A DNA stretch of 64,000 nucleotides from contig OX597830.1 in the NCBI GenBank assembly GCA_951406725.2, forward strand, positions 67,084,001-67,148,000, in the 5' to 3' direction. The position numbers and the translations under genes are program-made. Below are positions 40,180 through 55,684 of the stretch, one piece after another (within the stretch, counting starts at the first letter, position 1; every line of letters begins with the position of its first letter). Origin of the DNA: Octopus vulgaris. Its lineage: Eukaryota. The notes below the pieces were generated by a model. That model saw nothing but the letters and a program-made list of their open reading frames with translations, was not told the origin of the DNA and did not search any database.

Positions 40180-43100
40180 TATTCTGCTGGCGAGCATGCC
40201 AGGCGAAATGCTTAGCGGTATTGCATCTGTCGCTATGTTCTGAGTTCAAATTCCGCTGAGGTCAACTTTGCCTTTCATCCTTTTGGGGTCGATTGAATAA
40301 GTACCAGTTATGCACTGGGGTTGATATAATCGACTTAATCCATTTGTCTGTCCTTGTTTGTCCCCTCTGTGTTTAGCCCCTTGTGGGCAGTAAAGAAATA
40401 AAAATATGGTATTTAAAGCTCCCTGCATTAGATATTTTGACACTTACTTAACATTAATATGTCTGGAACAAACAACATTATCTAACATGTCATTCATTAC
40501 TGAATTCAATATGATGTTGCTTGATGAGGATTTAGCTGCCATTTCTACCAGGTCATGCTTCTAAGTTGAGAGACTCCCGTTGGTGTAAACTTTATTGCTT
40601 TACTAACTAACGTGTGTTTCACATCTCAGGCAAGCTGCCTTGCAGGGCTTTGTCTACTAAATACTTTAAAGTCAAAAGAATTTTGAAACATAGTAGAGTA
40701 GGAGGCTTGAGTTGGAAGCCCCGAAGACGAACGTGATCAAGCCTCAGAAAAACAGTATTAATGAACCAGCAACAGAGAATTCATTCTGATTGTTTTGCAT
40801 GGAAATAGGTGACAATGCTGTTCATGTAGTCGGGACAACCGATGCATTTCAGATTCATTTGTTCGGTTCAAGAAGGTTGCAGGCATGGCTGTGTTGTGAA
40901 AAGTCTTCTTCTCAACCACATGGTTCCAGGTTCAGTCCCACTGTGTGGCACACTGAGCTAGTGTCTTCTACTGTAGCCTCCAGGCCAACCAAAGCCTTGT
41001 GAATGGATTTGGTTGATGGAGACTGAAAGAAGCCTGTCATATATGTGTGTATGACTTTGTGTTTGGGTAATAGTTGTCCCACCACCACCACTTGACAATT
41101 GGTGTTGGTTTGTTTACATCCCTGTAACTTAGCAGTTTGGCAAAAGGGACTGATAGAATAAGTACCAAATTTAAAAAAAATAAGTACTGTGTGTGTGTGT
41201 GTGTATCTATGTATATATAGTTTCTGCCCACCAAATTTATTCACAAGGTTCGGGTCTGTAGTAGAAGTCACTTGCTCGAAGCGCAACCCTGCAAGACTGA
41301 ACCTGGAACCACATAGTTCTGAAACAGACTTCTTTACCACACAGCCACAGCTGGACTTAAACAGAAAGAACCAGAGGTTGGTGGGTAGCAGAAATTTTGG
41401 TAAACTTCAGCCACAAAATATATGGAAGTTCTTTGGAAGACAGTTGTATCATTTCCTTCTGAGCAGGAATGGTACACAGTCTACTATTCAAAGTAGCAGA
41501 GACTGTTATAATGCAGACAAAGGCTGTAGCATGTCAGTGGGCCAGTTAGCTTGTATTTATAGTGTGTTGTTGTTATTTAGCCCCAGGTCATCCTAGACTG
41601 CATATATTTATTGTCAAAGTGATTCTAGCCATGAACATCCTATTTCTTTTATTCAGGCATTGAAAGACAGGATCACATTATCCAATGCGTCATCTGTGCT
41701 GGCGGCTTTATCTCATATCTGAAAATTTAGTTTCTTCTTTGCTGAATGCTTCCTTTATGGTGATGGTGTTGATGACTCTGTCGACCAATTCTTGCATAGA
41801 AAAGTCAATGGCATTGACTGCATGGTAATGTTGGTGGAAGATGAAGTTTATTTTGTCAAACCTTTCTCTCCTGTCATTTGATTTCTTCCTTTTCTCTTCT
41901 AGTCACCTTGAAGTACCAGCGTGTACCTCCCGACTGCTATTTCTAACTTGTGGAGTGACCACACATATAGCATGTTGGTGACTGAAGCTTTATCTTCTGG
42001 TCCCCCCAAGATACGTTTTTTTTTGGGGGGGGGGGGTCTAGAATGTGTGTGAAGTAGCCCCATCATCCCAAATATTTGAGCAGCCACTAGGGGTCAGTAA
42101 TAATATAATATCCAATTCTAAGGATGTTAAGTGACCTTGAAGAAAGAAGCTACCATTTTTCTTGAAGGGCATCAAAACTTGCGAAGCCTAAATTTTGAAC
42201 CATAGATTATTTATTAGGTAGGGTAGCTGACAACTAACCAAGAGGTTGGTGGTTTCTATTCTGTCCTCATTCCTCTGTACTGCATCCATAATCAAAGTAC
42301 TTAACCCTCTTAAGGCCCAGTCCACTTATCTATAAATAAACACTGTTGGTTAGAACCATCGTTGCTTTTGTTGTTTGTTTAACCCTGGACCTGTTCCAGT
42401 TTTGTAGACATATGATCAGAGACATTCCATCCGTGACATTTGCATTCTTTATTAGTTTTTAACTTACTTAGGGCTATGTTATATAATGTATCCATCTTTT
42501 TAAAAATTGAAAGGTGTGATTTGTGTATGATTTAGCTGCTATTTCTTGCAGGTCAAGCAACTATACAGAAGGGTCCCCCCTTTGCTTACTAGCAATATTA
42601 TCGTTTTGATGAATGACTTATTAACTTGCAGTGCTGAGCTACTAATCAAGCAGAAATGATTTATTTCTCAAATAATTAACACTACAAAAACTGAACCATA
42701 AAGTGAAACTCTATATAGCTGTTTGACCTGTTAGAAATAACAGCCAACCATTTTTTTAAATGTATTTTTTTTAATGTATTTTTTAAAAATATAAATTCTT
42801 TAATTCTTTAAAATATAAATACTTTAAAGAATTCATTTGATAACATTGTCCAAAATATATAGCCATGACTGGATGGCCATGACTTAAGTATCTTTGGTCA
42901 TAAGTCTGCTCAAGCAGAATTGACCTGAGGGTTAAACAGCAAAAATTGGAAATAAACCCTGGATTATATGGATCCTTGGGTTTTGGAAGAGAATTAGATT
43001 TTATTTCATCTTAGTGATTAGAGTTCAAGAAGAATGGAATGAATTCTAGTGAATTGCTACTTACAGTTTACTTACTGGGTTTCGATTCCCAGACCGGGCG

Positions 43101-45592: not shown

Positions 45593-46864
45593 TTAAGTAT
45601 CATTTTGACATCACCTGACCACATGTCATCTTTCTGTAGTCCTGCTATGATTACCTGTCTATACTATGAGACAAAAGTCACAGCTACCCAAGGATTACAT
45701 TGTTTCCATTATCTCTTGTTCTCTCTCTTGTGTTACTTTAACTCATTAACTGGCACACAAATGTATAGTCGGTATGAAGGCACATGGCTCAAAGGTTAAA
45801 GTGTTTGGCTCTCAATCATGAGGTAGTGGATTTGATTCTTGGATCAAGCTGTGTGTTGGATTCTTGAGCAAGACACTTTACATTGTTCCAGTTCATTCAG
45901 CTGTAGAAATGAGTTGCGACCTCACTGGTGTCAAGCAGTATTGGCATTCACCTTTCCCTTGAATAACATCGGTGGTGTGGAGAGAGGAGGCAGGTATGCA
46001 TGGGTAACTGCTGGTCTTTGGTAAACAGTCTTGCTTGGACTTGTGCCTCAGAAGGTGCAATCCCATAGTCATTCATGACCAAAGGGGGTCTTAGGTAGGT
46101 CTTATAATTATAGCCTGTGTTTTAGATGTGTCTTTGGTTTTACAGGGACAATAGATAGTGCCATAATTTTAGCCATTTTCACTTGTGAGAACTCCTGATA
46201 TTATCCTAGAGAACCTGTAAAACTACTTGACATGATGGAAAATTTAGTTTGCTCCCATCCTTTTGCAAACAGAGAAATATAATTTTCCTCATTGCTTTCT
46301 CTTGGATTAGGTCCTGTGACAAAGAAATGCTGCTTAATTTTACAAAATATTCCTTCTAACATATTTTTCTTGTAACTGAAAAATCTAGAAATTCCATTTG
46401 ATCAGTTTTTGTGTGAAGAAAAGATTTGCCTTAACACAACTGCTGTATGAATTGTCCACAGTATTTGAAATCCCGTGGGAGTTACAGGTGTTCATATCCT
46501 TTTATTCTTATGCATTCAGTTGTGTTTTGAATCTGTGAAGTTTTTTTCTCTTCATCATTTTTTCTTTTTTTTTTGCAATTTTAATCTTTAGCTTTGTTAC
46601 ATGATTATGCGAGGTAACCCTTTTGGATGTGAAAAACATGCATGTCAATAATTTCTTTTTTAAATTTGTGAAACAAACCTCTTTTCTTTTTGTTGTTGTT
46701 CTGCCCCCAGGTATTAAGTGCAGGACTTCCTTAGGCATAATTCTTTTTTTTATAAGTACTTCATTGAAAGTTTATTTGGTAATACTTGAATAGCTTGTGT
46801 TTCGAATGCAGAAGCAAAGAGACATCTCCACACCACAAGGGTCACATATTACAATGATAATAAT

Positions 46865-46903
<39 letters not shown>

Positions 46904-47147
46904 AATAATAATAGTAATAATAGTAATAATAATAATAATCCTTTCTACTAAAAGCACAAGGACTGAAATTTGGTGGGGAGGGAACTAGTCGATTACATCA
47001 ACCCCATTGTTTCACTGGTATTTAATTTATTGATCCCCAAAAGGATGAAAGGCAAGGTCGACCTTCATGGAATTTGAAGACATGAAATGCTGCTAAGCAT
47101 TTTGCCCAGTGCTAACAATTCTGCAAGTTTGCCAACTTATGTGACAA

Positions 47148-47732
47148 ACTTATTGAAAATCATAGCAGAAAATTTTCCTGAAATTTCACTTGTGAGAACT
47201 TCTCTTGATATGTTCTAGAGAACCTACTTGACATGATAGAAAATTTAGTTTGCAAGTATTTTCTCTCACATGGAATTTCTAACATACTGTCTACACCACA
47301 TACTGTTTATTCATCACACCAGAAACATTCGTTTCTGTTTTGTCGACCAATTTTTTCAGAAATGTTTATGTTTACAGCAGTTTGAACTTACCAGTACCAC
47401 AGGAACTAACAGCACAGATAACAATGCTGTACTCACCACAAACAAACATAATTCCTACAGTTCAACAAATTCATATCATTAATCTCCAAGCTGGTCCATA
47501 TGATTGTGGTCTTTTTGCCCTGGCGTATGCATTTGAACTGGTCATTGGAAACTCTCCAGAGAAGTTTTTATTTGATCAGTCAAAAATGTTAGCACATTTA
47601 AGATTTTGCCTCGAAAACAATAAATTTGACCCTTTCCTCGAAAGTAAAGTTTTTTTCAAATGCCAACAAAAGCCACAGAAGTCACTCACTTTCTATCACC
47701 CACCCAGAGATGGATTATTCTTAGAAAGATGA
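47148..47732 (+). pseudogene. Ulp1/peptidase C48-like cysteine protease domain, decayed
   Basis: LKIIAENFPEI...ILFIHH...FV..ST...VYVYSSL...LQAGPYDCGLFALAYAFELVIGNSPEKFLFDQSKMLAHLRFCLENNKFDPF. The Q-x4-DCG.FA.A.A and FDQS.M..HL..C motifs are typical of transposon-borne Ulp1 domains. Confidence 0.75.
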
Positions 47733-50700
47733 CTAAAAGATTTGACTTCTCACATGAATATTCAGAGCAATTTTTTATCACCCAGTAGGTTCTGTGTTTT
47801 AAGTGAAGACTTCAAGCAAAACCCGAAAGGTAATCAGGAATCTAATGAAAGTAAGACTCTGAAAATCATTTTCCCAAGAAAATCCATCACACTAGAGAAT
47901 AAGTCAGTCATAAATTTATCTAAACTAAAACTTTCACCAAACGATATCTCTGTCTTAGAGCTTGGAATGAGTTTTTGCCCAAACACTAAGAATTTTGACA
48001 AGAATAAACTAGCTCAAGGGCTATTTCGGTTTGTCTGCCGTCACAAGCTGAAGGAATATTTTTTTGAAAAATATGATTATGCAGAGACAGAAAACCTTAT
48101 GCTTACTGAAACTAAAAATGATGATGATCGAATCTGGCATAATTGGATTGGAAAGAATTCCAGTTAGTATCCAGATAAAGTTCAGGAAGGACGTTCACAA
48201 CCACTACTGGAATTTCTTGAATTTTGTCGGACAGGCATTAGGGAAAGCCTTAAAATAAGTGGAAAGAAGTCCTGGAACAACCTCACAAATTTCCAACGTT
48301 ACGCACTCCAACGTTTAGCTAATAACAATTCTATTGTTATTAAGATGGCGGATAAGGGAGGCGCTATCGTAATTATGGACAAAAGTGAGTATATTTTGGC
48401 TTGTGAAGAAGTTTTAAGCGAAAAACTTAAATGAAGAATTATCTGTTGATCCAAACTCCAATTACAGAGAGGAACTTGACAAAATAATTCTGGAAATGGA
48501 GGAAAACAATTTCATTAATAAGGCTGAATCCAGGATTTTACAGTCAGGAAAAAGAACACCTGTATTTCATGGTCACACCAAAATACACAAAAAGTTCAAC
48601 AAAAGATTTCCTTCAATGCACCCAGTTTGCAGTAGATATGAATGTTGTACTGCCAAAATTTTGGAGTGGCTGGATGGCCTTCTACTCCCTGTCACAAAAA
48701 GATCAAGTTCCTATATTCAGAATACTTTTGATTTTGTGTCTAAAAGGGAATGTCAACAACTGTTTTTTGGTAACCATGGATGTTTCTTCCTTATATCCCA
48801 ATACTGACCATGTTGAAGGGGTAGAAACATGCATGAATGCCTTCGAAAAATGGTCAAACAAAAGTATTCCATCAAATTTTCTCTGTAGGCTATTGAGGTT
48901 TGTGTTACTTTGTAGCACAATGAAGTTTGGACAAAAATTTTACCACCAGACGAAGGGTTGCCAACAGACATGGGTATCCCCATGGCAGTTAATTTCACTA
49001 ATGTCTTCATGACGAAATTCGAGACACAGTTACTGAAGACATTCAAATCCCTACATGGTCATGAGCCAATTCTCTGGTTACGGTTCATTGATGATGTATT
49101 TTTTTGTCTGGGAAGGATCACAGGATAGTTTAATGGACTTCTTGCATTTCTGTGACTGTTATGCTAAAAACTATGGCTTTAAGTTCAACATAAAACTTAC
49201 GCCTAGTTTTTCAAAAACTACTATCCTTAAATCCTTAAAAATGTTTCAGCCTGAAGGCTGCGGATATGCTGGGGCACCATGAATTTTTGGGTACAAGTTA
49301 AGTTTTCTGGTGGCAGAGTTATTTTGTAAGCCCACGTCATCTCACATTTACCTCTACTTCCACTCTGATCATCCACATTTACTTCCACTGCCACTCTAAT
49401 CATCCACATCATAAAATTTGGTCAAATTTGAAATCTCAATTTTCGAGGATAAAATGGATTTGTACTGATATAGGGGATTACTGGAAACATGCAAGTGCTT
49501 TTATACACCATTATGACCAATGCAGTTACAGTGAATCATGATTAATGGAAATTGCAAATGACATAGCTAAGACTAACAAGGAAAGTCGAACTTTCATGCA
49601 TGATATTAGCAAACAATATATCACAGAATTCCTTTAGGGATTAACTGGCACCGAAATTTCGCTGGCGTTTCAAAAGTGTTATATGCAAGTTACCAGTATG
49701 TTATGGAAAAATATCCTCGTTTCAAACAGATATTTCCTCTCGTGGAAGCGCCATCCACCCAAAATGCAAATATATGGGAAACTACCACCTGTGTCATCTC
49801 TTGTGAAAGGTAGGAGAGTCCAGTTTGCTGGACATTGTTGTAGAGCTGAAAAAGAGGTAATTTCTACTCTTCTCCTCTGGAAGCCATCTGGTCACGATAC
49901 CAGAGGGCGCACACTCTCCTACCCTGATGTAATCTCCAGAGATACAGGCATCCAGCAGCAGGACCTCCGTAATGCCATGATGGACCGTGAAGTCTGGCGT
50001 GGCATGGTAAATTCCATTGTCTCGACCACGGTCGAACAATGATGATGATAGTAGCCTTTAGATGGAATAAAAAATATAAGAGAACTATTAACCTGTACTT
50101 CTGACTCCAAGAAAACTGACATTGGAGTTTCTGCATGCTGAACCTTGAAAAAACAGTTGCAAAAGAGGTAAGCCGAGTTCAGTGTGCAACAACAAGAGTC
50201 AATCAAGTCAATTCCATCAGGAATCTTAATAGAAATGTTATGATTTATATGAAAGGTGGGACATGTAGAGATTCCCATTTGCTGTACGCAACAGAATGCA
50301 CCAAATATAATTTGACTTATGTTGGTTGTACAACAGAACAATTAAACGAAAGATTCAATGGACACAGTTATGACATCAGACACAATAACAGTAGTTCGAC
50401 AGAACTTGCTGAACATTTTACATCAAACGGCTGCAATTTTGAAAAAGACTAGAAAGTGTATATTCTCAGAAAATATTCTGAATCTGCCACACTTTCAGTA
50501 CTCAAAATGCATAAGGAGCAATATGTTTGTGACTTATTAACATCACGTCCTGAAGGGATGAATAAAATGACAGGGGAATTTTATCATATTTACACAAAAC
50601 CGTTTGATTAAATATTCTTCTTTTCCTTTTTCTTTTCTTTTCTTTTTTCTCTTTTTTTCTTTTTTTTTTGCCAGTTGTAAAATCGAAAATTGAAGACTGA

Positions 50701-50872
50701 TGATGTTATTCCATCAACGTGGGAATGCAGGTTGCCCTCATTCAAACTTTTGAGTTTGAATTTCTATGTACCACTTTTCATTTTGAACTTGACAAAGACA
50801 CGCAAGCTGTTGAAATATTCAAACCAATAAAATATCTATTGCAATCGCATCACACTCTTTGTATTGTCTATT
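47733..50872 (+). mobile_element. Penelope-like retroelement, near-complete RT + C-terminal GIY-YIG, pseudogenised
   Basis: In order: VINLS..LS...SVL.LGMSFCP; IVIKMADKGGAIVIMD; KIHK; SYIQNTFDF; VTMDVSSLYPN; MGIPMAVNFTNVFM; RFIDDVF; KPT..YL..SDHP; SQ.SRI..IC; GGTC..LLYATEC..YVGCT..LNERFNGH..AEHF..PEGMN. Many stops and frameshifts. Confidence 0.93.
49737..50048 (+). mobile_element. RTE-clade LINE 3' end nested in the Penelope element
   Basis: SWKRHP...YGKLPPVS...RRVQFAGHC.R...LLLWKP....M.DREVWR*, then a (GAT)n tail. The host frame resumes with IVAFRWNKNIRELL. Confidence 0.88.
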
Positions 50873-50888
50873 TAATAATAATAATAAT

Positions 50889-50950
<62 letters not shown>

Positions 50951-51146
50951 TGATGATGATGATAATAATAATAATAATAATGATGATAATAATAATAATA
51001 ATAATAACAATAATAATAATAACAATAATAATAATAACAATAATAATAAATAACAATAATAATAATAATAACAATAATAATAACAATAATAATAATAACA
51101 ATAATAATAAATAATAATAATAATAATAATAATAATGATGATAATG

Positions 51147-51195
<49 letters not shown>

Positions 51196-51230
51196 TGATA
51201 ATGATAATAATAATAATAATAATAATGATG

Positions 51231-51267
<37 letters not shown>

Positions 51268-51363
51268 TAATAATAATAACAATAATAATAAATAACAATA
51301 ATAATGACAATAATAATAACAATAATAATAACAATAATAATAATAACAATAATAATAAATAAC

Positions 51364-51452
<89 letters not shown>

Positions 51453-51642
51453 TGATGATAATAATAATAATAATAATGATGATAATAATAATAATAATAA
51501 TAACAATAATAATAATAACAATAATAATAATAACAATAATAATAAATAACAATAATAATAATAATAACAATAATAATAACAATAATAATAATAACAATAA
51601 TAATAAATAATAATAATAATAATAATAATAATGATGATAATG

Positions 51643-51691
<49 letters not shown>

Positions 51692-51726
51692 TGATAATGA
51701 TAATAATAATAATAATAATAATTATG

Positions 51727-51766
<40 letters not shown>

Positions 51767-51862
51767 TAATAATAATAACAATAATGATAAATAACAATAA
51801 TAATGACAATAATAATAACAATAATAATAACAATAATAATAATAACAATAATAATAAATAAC

Positions 51863-51912
<50 letters not shown>

Positions 51913-51924
51913 TAATAATAATAA
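50873..51924. repeat. Compound (AAT/AAC/GAT)n array with an approximately 499-bp higher-order duplication
   Basis: The same pattern of variant triplets recurs about 496-499 bp apart (for example 51135/51631 and 51304/51803). Confidence 0.85.
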
Positions 51925-53232
51925 TGGCTTCAAATTTTGGCTTAAGGACAGCAATTTTAGCAGTGGGATTAAATCAGTTACATTAATCCCAATGCTCAAC
52001 TGGTTATTTATTTTATTGACCACAAAAGGATGAAAAGCAAAGTCAACCTTGGCAGAATTTGAACTCAGCACATTGTGCCAGGAAAGAAATGTTTCAGTAT
52101 TTTGTCCAATGTGTTAATGATTCTGCTATCTTGCCAATAATTTATTATATTCACAACAAGAGCAATGGATGATAGGACTTTAGAATGACAAAAACAGTGG
52201 ATGGTTATTTTTTAAAAGAATTTTGAGTGAGAAACAGGTGTGAATAAGAAGAAATTAAATGAAACATAACAAAAATGGACCAGTAAACCAAATCAATCAA
52301 GAAACCCCACAGATCCCAGTTTACCCTTAATGTTAAGAGCAACTACCCTCTATCAATTGTGTTCTCTGTCCTACAGTTACATACTGAAATTAGTTCCATT
52401 TATCTAAACCATGTTCCTTAATCTCACTCACCTTTCTGAACATTTATTGGACAGGGTCGTAAAGTTACTTGGTGACCCTGCCAGTGCAGGTATCACTTAA
52501 AAAGCATCTAGTTCACACTGTAAAGTGGTTGCCATTTGGAAGGGTGTCCAGCTGTAAAAACCATGCCTAAATTGATCTTACCTGTGCTGGCACCATGTAA
52601 AAAAACCATTCAGCCTACTCTGCAGAGTGGTTGGTGCTAGGAAAGGAAACCAGCATAAAAAAAAAACATGCTAAAACAGACAGAAGCATGGTGTAGGCTT
52701 CTGTCTGGTCAGCTCCTGTCAAACATTCCAACCAATGCCAGCATGGAAGGAGGACATTAAACGATGATGATGATGATAGCATGTTCCTTTCCATTCATAC
52801 TCTCCCTGTGGTACTATAAGGACTTGGGTAAAGAGAAAAGTACCTGTCTTCAAACCTTTCAGTTGTGTTCACCATATGACTTTCTGAATAGTCACAAGAT
52901 GAAAATTTCTGCCTTCCCAGCCAAAGAAAGACAGAGGGGAATTTCTCATAATGGACATTGTTGATAGCTAAATTTGTCCTACATGAAAACGATAATAATA
53001 ATAATAATAATAATTTATTTCCATTGTATTTTCGGATAAAATTCTCAATGCAAGCCAAGATGCAATATTGATCTATACGCAATATTAAAATGAAGAAACA
53101 TATTAAAATGAAGAAATATATGATGTAAATGGTTAAATATAATGATAAAACGAAATAACAAATATTACATAATAATAATGTATGATAGGACACAATACAT
53201 CAAAAACAACTATAACAATAATAGTAATAATG

Positions 53233-54996: not shown

Positions 54997-55226
54997 AGGC
55001 GGCGAGCTGGTAGAAACGTTAGCATGCTGGGTGAAGTGCTTAGCAGTATTTTGTCTGCATTACGTTCTGAGTTCAAATTCCGCCGAGGTCGACTTTGCCT
55101 TTCATCCTTTCGGGGTCGATAAATTAAGTACCAGTAATACACTGGGGTCGATGTAGTTGACTTAATCTGTTTGTCTGTCCTTGTTTGCCCTCTCTGTGTT
55201 TAGCCCCTTGTGGGTAATAAAGAAAT
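54997..55226 (+). mobile_element. SINE family B
   Basis: 18-bp TSD AAGATAATATTTCCCCTA. Confidence 0.9.
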
Positions 55227-55684
55227 AAGATAATATTTCCCCTAGTTGGGCACCTTTTCCATGGAAGACTGGAAAAGAACAACACTGCTTGTATGATGGT
55301 GATACTTGTTTACAACCATCACATGATGTCAAGACAAGGATATGCACATGCACAGAGAGAGAGAGAGAGAGAGAATGACTAGATATGTTCTGTTGTGGAA
55401 ATCTGCTGCCCTCTGGACACCAATGTGGTTAGAAAAGTACCAAAGAAAGGGGACCTCAATGGATCATTGATAAGGAGTTTGTAAATCCACTACCCAAGAT
55501 ACACTTTCAGCTTCATCCCTATTATTATTGAAGCAATAAGATATATAACAATTCATCTGGAGCAAGTATGGTTGAGCTTGTGAACTTGGGGAGAGAATGC
55601 AGACCCTTAATTCACACACTACAAATGATCATGATACCTGGGACAATAAAAATCTGTAAAACCTTACTCTTTTTCTTTTTTTTC

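Follow-up and report, generated by a model that had tools for sequence, protein, structure and literature searches.

In the available part of Craig et al. 2021 (PMC8557442), endonuclease-positive (EN+) Penelope elements of the Neptune type are described with a single open reading frame (ORF) that contains a DKG motif, a reverse transcriptase (RT), a thumb, a linker of the CX2-5CxxC type and, at the C-terminus, a GIY-YIG endonuclease, and with pseudo-long terminal repeats (pLTRs), tandem and inverted insertions and microsatellite flanks. In this study, a window of 64,000 nucleotides from Octopus vulgaris (GenBank assembly GCA_951406725.2, contig OX597830.1, positions 67,084,001 to 67,148,000 of the forward strand) was analysed, and a decayed Penelope copy that resembles Neptune in these respects was found between about 47137 and 50872. 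Unlike Neptune, this family and its relatives possess an internal protease of the Ulp1/C48 type and a 2A-like leader in an ORF of 1200-1500 residues, and most relatives are without the zinc-finger cysteines of the linker and the first Cys of the CCHH motif.

Parts of this layout are known from other elements. According to the accessible sections of PMC4640811, the NeSL and Utopia-1_TSP non-LTR retrotransposons have an Ulp1-like cysteine protease upstream of the RT in the retroelement ORF. Their protease is N-terminal and is combined with an R2-group RT and a restriction-like endonuclease, whereas here it is inserted behind a helical domain and combined with a telomerase-related RT and GIY-YIG. 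C48-type proteases are also described for the Ginger1 and Mutator Ulp1 (+PHD) DNA transposons (PMC2836005, available text), but these encode DNA transposases, and their protease is usually C-terminal and followed by a PHD finger. In the available text of PMC8557442, a putative motif of a cysteine protease is described for one Penelope-like element, Chlamys-1_cBra; unlike the domain reported here, that motif is weak, Josephin-like and C-terminal, and belongs to a permuted green-algal clade. The leader resembles 2A-like sequences known from APE non-LTR retrotransposons (Odon et al. 2013, PMC3708506, as excerpted), in which a hydrophobic tract near the ORF start ends in ExNPGP, but the hosts here are Penelope elements, a word with 0 occurrences in PMC3708506.

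No Ulp1-bearing Penelope element was found in the literature searched; the domain may already be recorded in Repbase/Dfam entries or in subscription papers. The text of Craig 2021 has 0 occurrences of Ulp1, C48, SUMO and peptidase, its supplement, with long sequence lines cut, has 0 of protease, Ulp1 and DCGL, and the accessible portions of PMC5718144 and PMC6431247 mention no such element. Judged from sequence, a widespread Penelope variant with a built-in C48 protease is real and, as far as the searched literature shows, new.

The protease is an inherited part of the element

A sequence-only reading of the window had proposed a Penelope-like lineage in which one ORF combines a C48-type protease with an RT and an endonuclease; this is upheld both by genome copies and by 36 proteins of the same order. 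The motifs on which it was based lie where they had been placed, with Q..DCGLFALAYA at 47487-47531, FDQSKM.AHL..CL behind it, VINLS at 47907, GMSFCP, DKG at 48351-48359, FIDD of the RT at 49084-49095 and GIY-YIG at about 50255-50608. Pfam recognised GIY-YIG (E 2e-4) and, weakly, RVT_1 on the window.

In each DNA search of the genome, the best 40 of 206-595 candidates were scored. A 1-kb query across the junction of protease and Penelope sequence gave 43 matches (best 40 of 206 candidates scored). The junction is present at many loci, as had been expected: 28 of 30 fetched copies cover the distance from the catalytic Cys to VINLS, with a majority length of 399 columns, in frame. Seven of the 30 loci share an upstream flank and are probably segmental duplicates. 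Natural stop-free frames run over the junction in L035:4229-4783 and L020:1482-2477, and in L046 the His, Asp and Cys all lie in one open frame. Across the 30 copies the triad is retained as His in 20 (read by eye), Asp in 19 and Cys in 25. No intact copy of the family was among the loci fetched from these best-scored candidates.

Forty loci were chosen by RT DNA alone, 35 of them newly fetched and 5 fetched earlier. The protease is present in all 5 of the latter; of the new ones, 32 end at scattered points downstream of VINLS, 2 carry the protease and 1 has an inverted linker piece. All 8 loci (of 40) that extend upstream of VINLS carry protease-side sequence, and no protease-less version of the element was seen among the 40. 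Conversely, further loci chosen by the protease sit in Penelope sequence in 24 of 24 cases, with no separate protease transposon among them, and an outside protease query and the family query found largely the same genome places (compared by eye). An origin of the protease from a separate DNA transposon, named beforehand as the outcome that would overturn the fusion, thus failed in three tests: the junction copies, the RT-selected loci and the protease-selected loci. The protease-Penelope fusion is real and inherited. Most of the protease has been removed from L074 by an internal deletion, and a few loci have larger deletions; these are single, uneven events.

Full-length organisation of the family

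Longer copies contain about 850 nt more 5' sequence, and a direct copy of the 3' end immediately precedes them; in many of the truncated ones an inverted 3' end is seen instead. A majority read, for which 76 fragments and one natural reference unit were taken from the window and 41 loci, yields 606 stop-free codons from the leader through the protease to past VINLS. First comes a basic-hydrophobic leader that closes with SVEPNPGP, then a helical domain (H..FL..C...IP.GL), the protease, a linker rich in Ser, Thr and Pro, and VINLS..GLSFCP. Downstream, the majority read splits into three more long frames with DKG, RT with FIDD, thumb, Cys-containing linker and GIY-YIG. In full copies the protease has Penelope sequence before and after it and is therefore internal to the ORF. 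It had been taken to be joined at the ORF start, but is instead inserted behind the N-terminal helical domain of the Penelope protein. Neither this position nor the N-terminal part of the ORF was visible in the window, because the copy is truncated at about 47137.

Nearly all of the listed segments have (TAA)n or (ATT)n next to their 3' end. Pseudo-LTRs, 5' truncation and 3' ends in tandem or inverted arrangement were all found, and the intact relative L081 opens and closes with the same repeat. The pLTR contains a hammerhead-like motif with an exact U3-A8 core in 24 of 55 own segments and also in L081 and L082, with an extra base before helix II and a palindromic helix III; this variant is described for Penelope elements in the accessible part of PMC4209133. 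Rfam gave no hammerhead match in the sister loci L032, L046 and L052. Single-strand (monomer) folding was mostly unremarkable, and L082 alone stood out among the four pieces folded, one of which was mis-cut. Two near-identical, internally deleted copies, L070 and L071, keep both pLTRs and the leader and are a possible non-autonomous derivative.

Among the relatives described below, the leader contains NPGP in 26 of 33 proteins and DPx[IV]ExNPGP in 21 of 33. Non-canonical 2A variants range from active to dead (PMC3708506, available part). Most full N-termini begin with M.D..xYRxRIGxF, and in one subclade (P0166, P0210, P0220, P0227 and P0259) a conserved D.R..KN.QR motif takes the place of NPGP after the hydrophobic leader.

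Intact relatives with the same layout

Relatives were searched with a profile of 23 natural pieces at a cutoff of E up to 0.001. This returned 1931 cluster representatives, and among the top 150 the protease occurs in 123, together with a Penelope part in 44 and together with RT in 14. The set was pooled with two further searches and with JGI loci; the intact relatives come from European Nucleotide Archive (ENA), Logan and JGI contigs. Domains were called with profiles of our own alignment, and Pfam independently confirms RVT_1 and GIY-YIG in many of the proteins. The full layout of helical domain, protease, VINLS, DKG and RT is found in 36 distinct proteins, 28 of which also have the endonuclease; the median pairwise identity among the 36 is 45%, and the ORFs span the 1200-1500 residues given above, with an intact frame of 1261 codons in L081. 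When 120 proteins were chosen by RT alone, 32 had the helical domain and VINLS, and 31 of these 32 had the protease in between. The exception, the distant P0274, has a 39-residue gap in the place of the protease and a plain layout. The protein with a name that is closest to the window protease is an Octopus UniRef entry, P0003, annotated as a ubiquitin-like protease family profile domain; a word-index protein search with P0002 found none among longer proteins (0 of 199 candidates). In the protease-VINLS linker of relatives, KW..P and N[RK][FY] are kept just after the protease (the latter in 32 of 36), the rest of the linker being variable.

In an unrooted RT tree of 129 rows made by a quick method, a branch with a support of 93 in the Shimodaira-Hasegawa-like approximate likelihood ratio test (SH-aLRT) parts 38 rows without a detected protease from the protease-bearing rows and truncated kin. 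P0274 is the only one of the 38 with an informative N-terminus, and P0165 could not be placed. In the tree of the protease domains, which has 80 rows and omits most of the short unlinked hits, the 54 Penelope-linked domains share one branch (93) with five other rows. Judged by eye, its subgroups are similar to those of the RT tree, and the octopus family stands with P0006 and P0195 in both. A single capture of the protease followed by co-descent with the RT would be the simplest reading of these trees.

The RT and endonuclease class

The RT of the P0006 model has TERT as its top 11 Foldseek matches, and the telomerase-like RT is accompanied by the DKG and GxxF N-terminal motifs expected of Penelope. 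GIY-YIG is C-terminal in the same ORF, and Pfam PF01541 scores above its cut-off in the L040 piece and several relatives. By eye, the motifs of RT and thumb agree with the Neptune rows in Fig. S7 of PMC8557442. The CxxC linker and CCHH-like residues are present in the octopus family and in the P0044, P0166 and P0234 groups, and most other relatives have lost them; the majority of the large subclade (e.g., P0005, P0007 and P0157) no longer have the zinc-finger cysteines of the linker and the first Cys of CCHH, with the ORF intact. In its motifs the RT resembles Neptune, and in its predicted fold telomerase.

Catalytic residues and fold of the protease

All 53 Penelope-linked domains keep the His, Asp, Gln and Cys unchanged, in the order of a clan CE triad with its oxyanion Gln; this invariance would point to selection for catalysis. 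The Asp of an L.D motif, which we take to be the counterpart of Ulp1 Asp451 gripping the tail of the substrate, is likewise kept in 53 of 53. ESM Atlas assigned Peptidase_C48 clusters (0.97, 213 of 256 features), with the family on 39% of the members of the best cluster. The predicted model of a natural piece of the octopus family has a predicted local distance difference test score (pLDDT) of 93, and the first 12 Foldseek matches are SUMO proteases (Ulp1/SENP). In a wider fold search with predicted models, 29 CE-type chains reached Z of at least 8, the next chain being at 4.8; viral CE proteases stood lower in the list at Z 11-13. A sequence search of the PDB gave nothing significant. The nearest non-Penelope relatives of the protease adjoin SWIM, YqaJ, integrase-like or PHD domains, a setting similar to that of the Ulp1-PHD modules of Ginger and Mutator (PMC2836005), and score as Pfam C48.

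In the model of P0006 (1187 residues), a long helical domain is followed by the protease, which forms a confident domain of its own with low-confidence linkers on either side, and then by the RT. The linkers beside the protease are predicted to be disordered or flexible, and linker length varies from 73 to 386 residues.

The same protease in other retroelements

A second, very distant GIY-YIG retroelement (L088:3-4898 and L086:365-2992) has a 1632-codon ORF with RWR and DKS motifs and the same protease in the same position. The protease of L088 falls within the Penelope protease group (98) and shares 69% identity with the one in L086, which suggests, on the sequence comparison, that the module moved between retroelements. 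The L088 branch of the RT tree is too long to be placed; an assignment as Hydra-like was rejected, as RW[RK] and DK[ST] alone are in common and the Hydra RT4/RT5 motifs (Fig. S7, PMC8557442) are missing. A protease of the same group in L087:124-2286 lies upstream of a weak APE-type endonuclease match (E 4e-4), possibly a long interspersed nuclear element (LINE) with a C48 domain. A related protease in L089:1831-3162 is followed by a weak F-box match.

Anatomy and decay of the window copy

All parts of the window copy lie on the forward (+) strand of a microsatellite-rich host genome of 2.8 Gb. The 5'-truncated protease domain, of predicted Ulp1/C48-like (clan CE) type, occupies 47137-47640, and the predicted fold of a sister copy scored Z 15-16 to NEDP1, SENP and Ulp1. 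The copy had been called dead, and this was borne out by about 25 insertions or deletions relative to the family majority and by Ser at the catalytic Asp (47376-47378). It is also without the catalytic His, with Arg at 47330-47332, while the Gln (47487-47489) and the Cys (47505-47507) are retained. The largest window fragment differs by 8.5% from the family majority, and the median over 56 fragments is 8.75%.

The linker rich in Ser, Thr and Pro, with KW..P and NRF motifs, extends over 47641-47906 and bears the insertions behind a false TGA frame. The apparent continuation of the protease frame from a TGA at 47730 through LKDLTSHM into VINLS, from which the fusion had originally been deduced, proved to be an artefact. 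A comparison with 29 other copies shows one surplus base in the window at each of about 47335, 47638, 47650 and 47771, the last three each common to at most 2 of 30 copies, and because of these three the TGA and LKDLTSHM stand in a shifted frame. The net change of +3 recovers the frame before VINLS by luck, with 402 nt from Cys to VINLS in the window against 399 majority columns. The expected sense codon at 47730 was borne out insofar as 22 of 30 copies read CGA there, but the triplet is not a codon in the inherited frame. None of the contigs listed from sequencing runs spans 47638-47771, the site of these bases, and one contig is identical to 47156-47407 and so supports the His, Asp and 47335 changes. 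No RNA run was among the sequencing runs listed with a match.

The Penelope N-terminal motifs VINLS..G.SFCP and DKG lie in 47907-48360, and the RT core and thumb, broken by frameshifts, in 48361-49739. The end of the thumb, the Cys-containing linker and the GIY-YIG endonuclease follow in 50048-50611 up to the stop TAA at 50609-50611. The 3' untranslated region or pLTR (50612-50872) recurs upstream of the ORF, directly or inverted, in other copies and includes a minimal type-I hammerhead-like motif at 50783-50823, whose U3-A8 core is decayed here. A (TAA)n microsatellite, the usual flank of the family, adjoins the 3' end at 50873-51925 (no strand assigned).

Two foreign inserts interrupt the copy. 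In the start of the protease, 70 bp at 47188-47257 (+) are 80% like the low-copy flank at 46177-46252, which lies 1 kb upstream; at the left edge a short word is common to both, and the piece is possibly a templated insertion. In the thumb region, a high-copy repeat with a (GAT)n tail at 49740-50047 (+), presumably a LINE-like 3' piece, takes the place of about 10 bases with no target duplication seen; it is missing in other copies, and very high depth and joints across it were recorded. An (AAT/AAC)n tract is followed at 46940-47136 by a high-copy repeat resembling a short interspersed nuclear element, which immediately precedes the truncated element and has related copies at about 40230-40400 and 55060-55230.

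Discussion

The window contains a dead, 5'-truncated, Neptune-like Penelope copy, and its ORF-internal Ulp1/C48-fold protease is likely, in a reading that we hold with modest confidence, to be an isopeptidase removing SUMO from host proteins near the element. With catalytic residues kept in dozens of intact relatives, the domain would be expected to remove SUMO-type tags from host proteins. SUMO is favoured because the closest structures are SUMO proteases and because piRNA-guided recruitment of SetDB1 for silencing in Drosophila requires SUMO (10.1101/533091, available part).

Several observations weigh against this reading. The top of the wide fold search is a tie between a NEDD8 protease (Z 15.8), SENP3 (15.7), NopD (15.3), Ulp1 (15.2), SENP5 (15.1) and a deubiquitinase (14.8), at 14-19% identity. 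Two tryptophans that presumably line the Gly-Gly tunnel of SENP are poorly kept, the first in 6 of 53 domains and His-Trp in 20 of 53 (His-Phe in 31). Pfam C48 gave no match in the window or in pieces of the octopus family and was mostly below its cut-off in relatives. The PHD finger that follows the protease in most neighbours of the DNA-transposon type is absent here, and there is therefore no support for chromatin targeting. The canonical 2A motif D[VI]ExNPGP occurs in 0 of 33 leaders. The link between SUMO and piRNA comes from flies, not molluscs.

The same fold tie, in which NEDP1 and a bacterial deubiquitinase equal the SUMO proteases, and the poorly kept tryptophans would fit a deubiquitinase or deneddylase in the same layout, which could shield the protein of the element from degradation or tune repair at the insertion site. 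Such roles have precedents in the accessible parts of PMC8557442, with the Josephin-like motif of Chlamys-1_cBra and an anti-degradation role proposed for Dualen, and of PMC2836005, with a repair role proposed for Ginger Ulp1/OTU. We consider this unlikely, as SUMO proteases fill the first 12 Foldseek places and the nearest sequence neighbours score as Pfam C48. Cleavage of the element's own polyprotein had been suggested in the sequence-only reading and appears distinctly improbable; in the manner of viral CE-clan proteases, the enzyme would separate the RT-endonuclease from the N-terminal part. Such cleavage would suit the flexible linkers on both sides of the protease, the viral CE proteases in the fold list and the alternative conserved motif behind the leader in the subclade without NPGP. 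But a conserved Gly-Gly is missing, being found in the protease-VINLS linker of 1 of 36 proteins and in the upstream linker of 0 of 36, linker length is highly variable, and the protease-less P0274 has the same helical domain and RT with no need of a cut. That a fragment of a DNA transposon came to lie in frame upstream of an ordinary Penelope element by chance is a negligible prospect, even though the window's own read-through is accidental and other elements have closely related proteases next to SWIM, YqaJ, integrase and PHD domains. Chance adjacency is refuted by the 606-codon majority read, with Penelope sequence flanking the protease on both sides in full copies, by the 24 of 24 protease-selected loci and by the same order in 36 full-layout proteins elsewhere, and the 8 RT-selected loci that reach upstream of VINLS agree.

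Returning to SUMO removal, mobility is expected to follow the general Penelope pattern. The element would be transcribed from the pLTR and its transcript processed by the hammerhead; the endonuclease would nick at (TAA)n, and target-primed reverse transcription would give 5' truncation and inversion. The 2A-like NPGP may release the basic-hydrophobic leader, and the protease would travel into the nucleus with the RT-endonuclease protein, where it could reverse SUMO-dependent steps of silencing or repair. The domain would stem from one capture of an invertebrate C48 domain of the DNA-transposon type, followed by vertical descent. In its most far-reaching form, which is tentative and more doubtful than probable, a widespread Penelope clade would carry a counter-defence deSUMOylase against silencing of the piRNA/SetDB1 type behind a StopGo-released leader, and would have passed the module to the GIY-YIG lineage of L088/L086 and to the APE-type LINE of L087.

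Ulp1-like domains recur in unrelated transposons, and the telomerase-related Penelope class now joins this list. It does so as a deep clade with strictly kept catalytic residues, in which dozens of intact natural single-ORF elements link protease, RT and endonuclease and allow direct tests of the substrate and of the effect on mobility. If the substrate is SUMO, a retroelement would here encode an antagonist of a step that is central to silencing.

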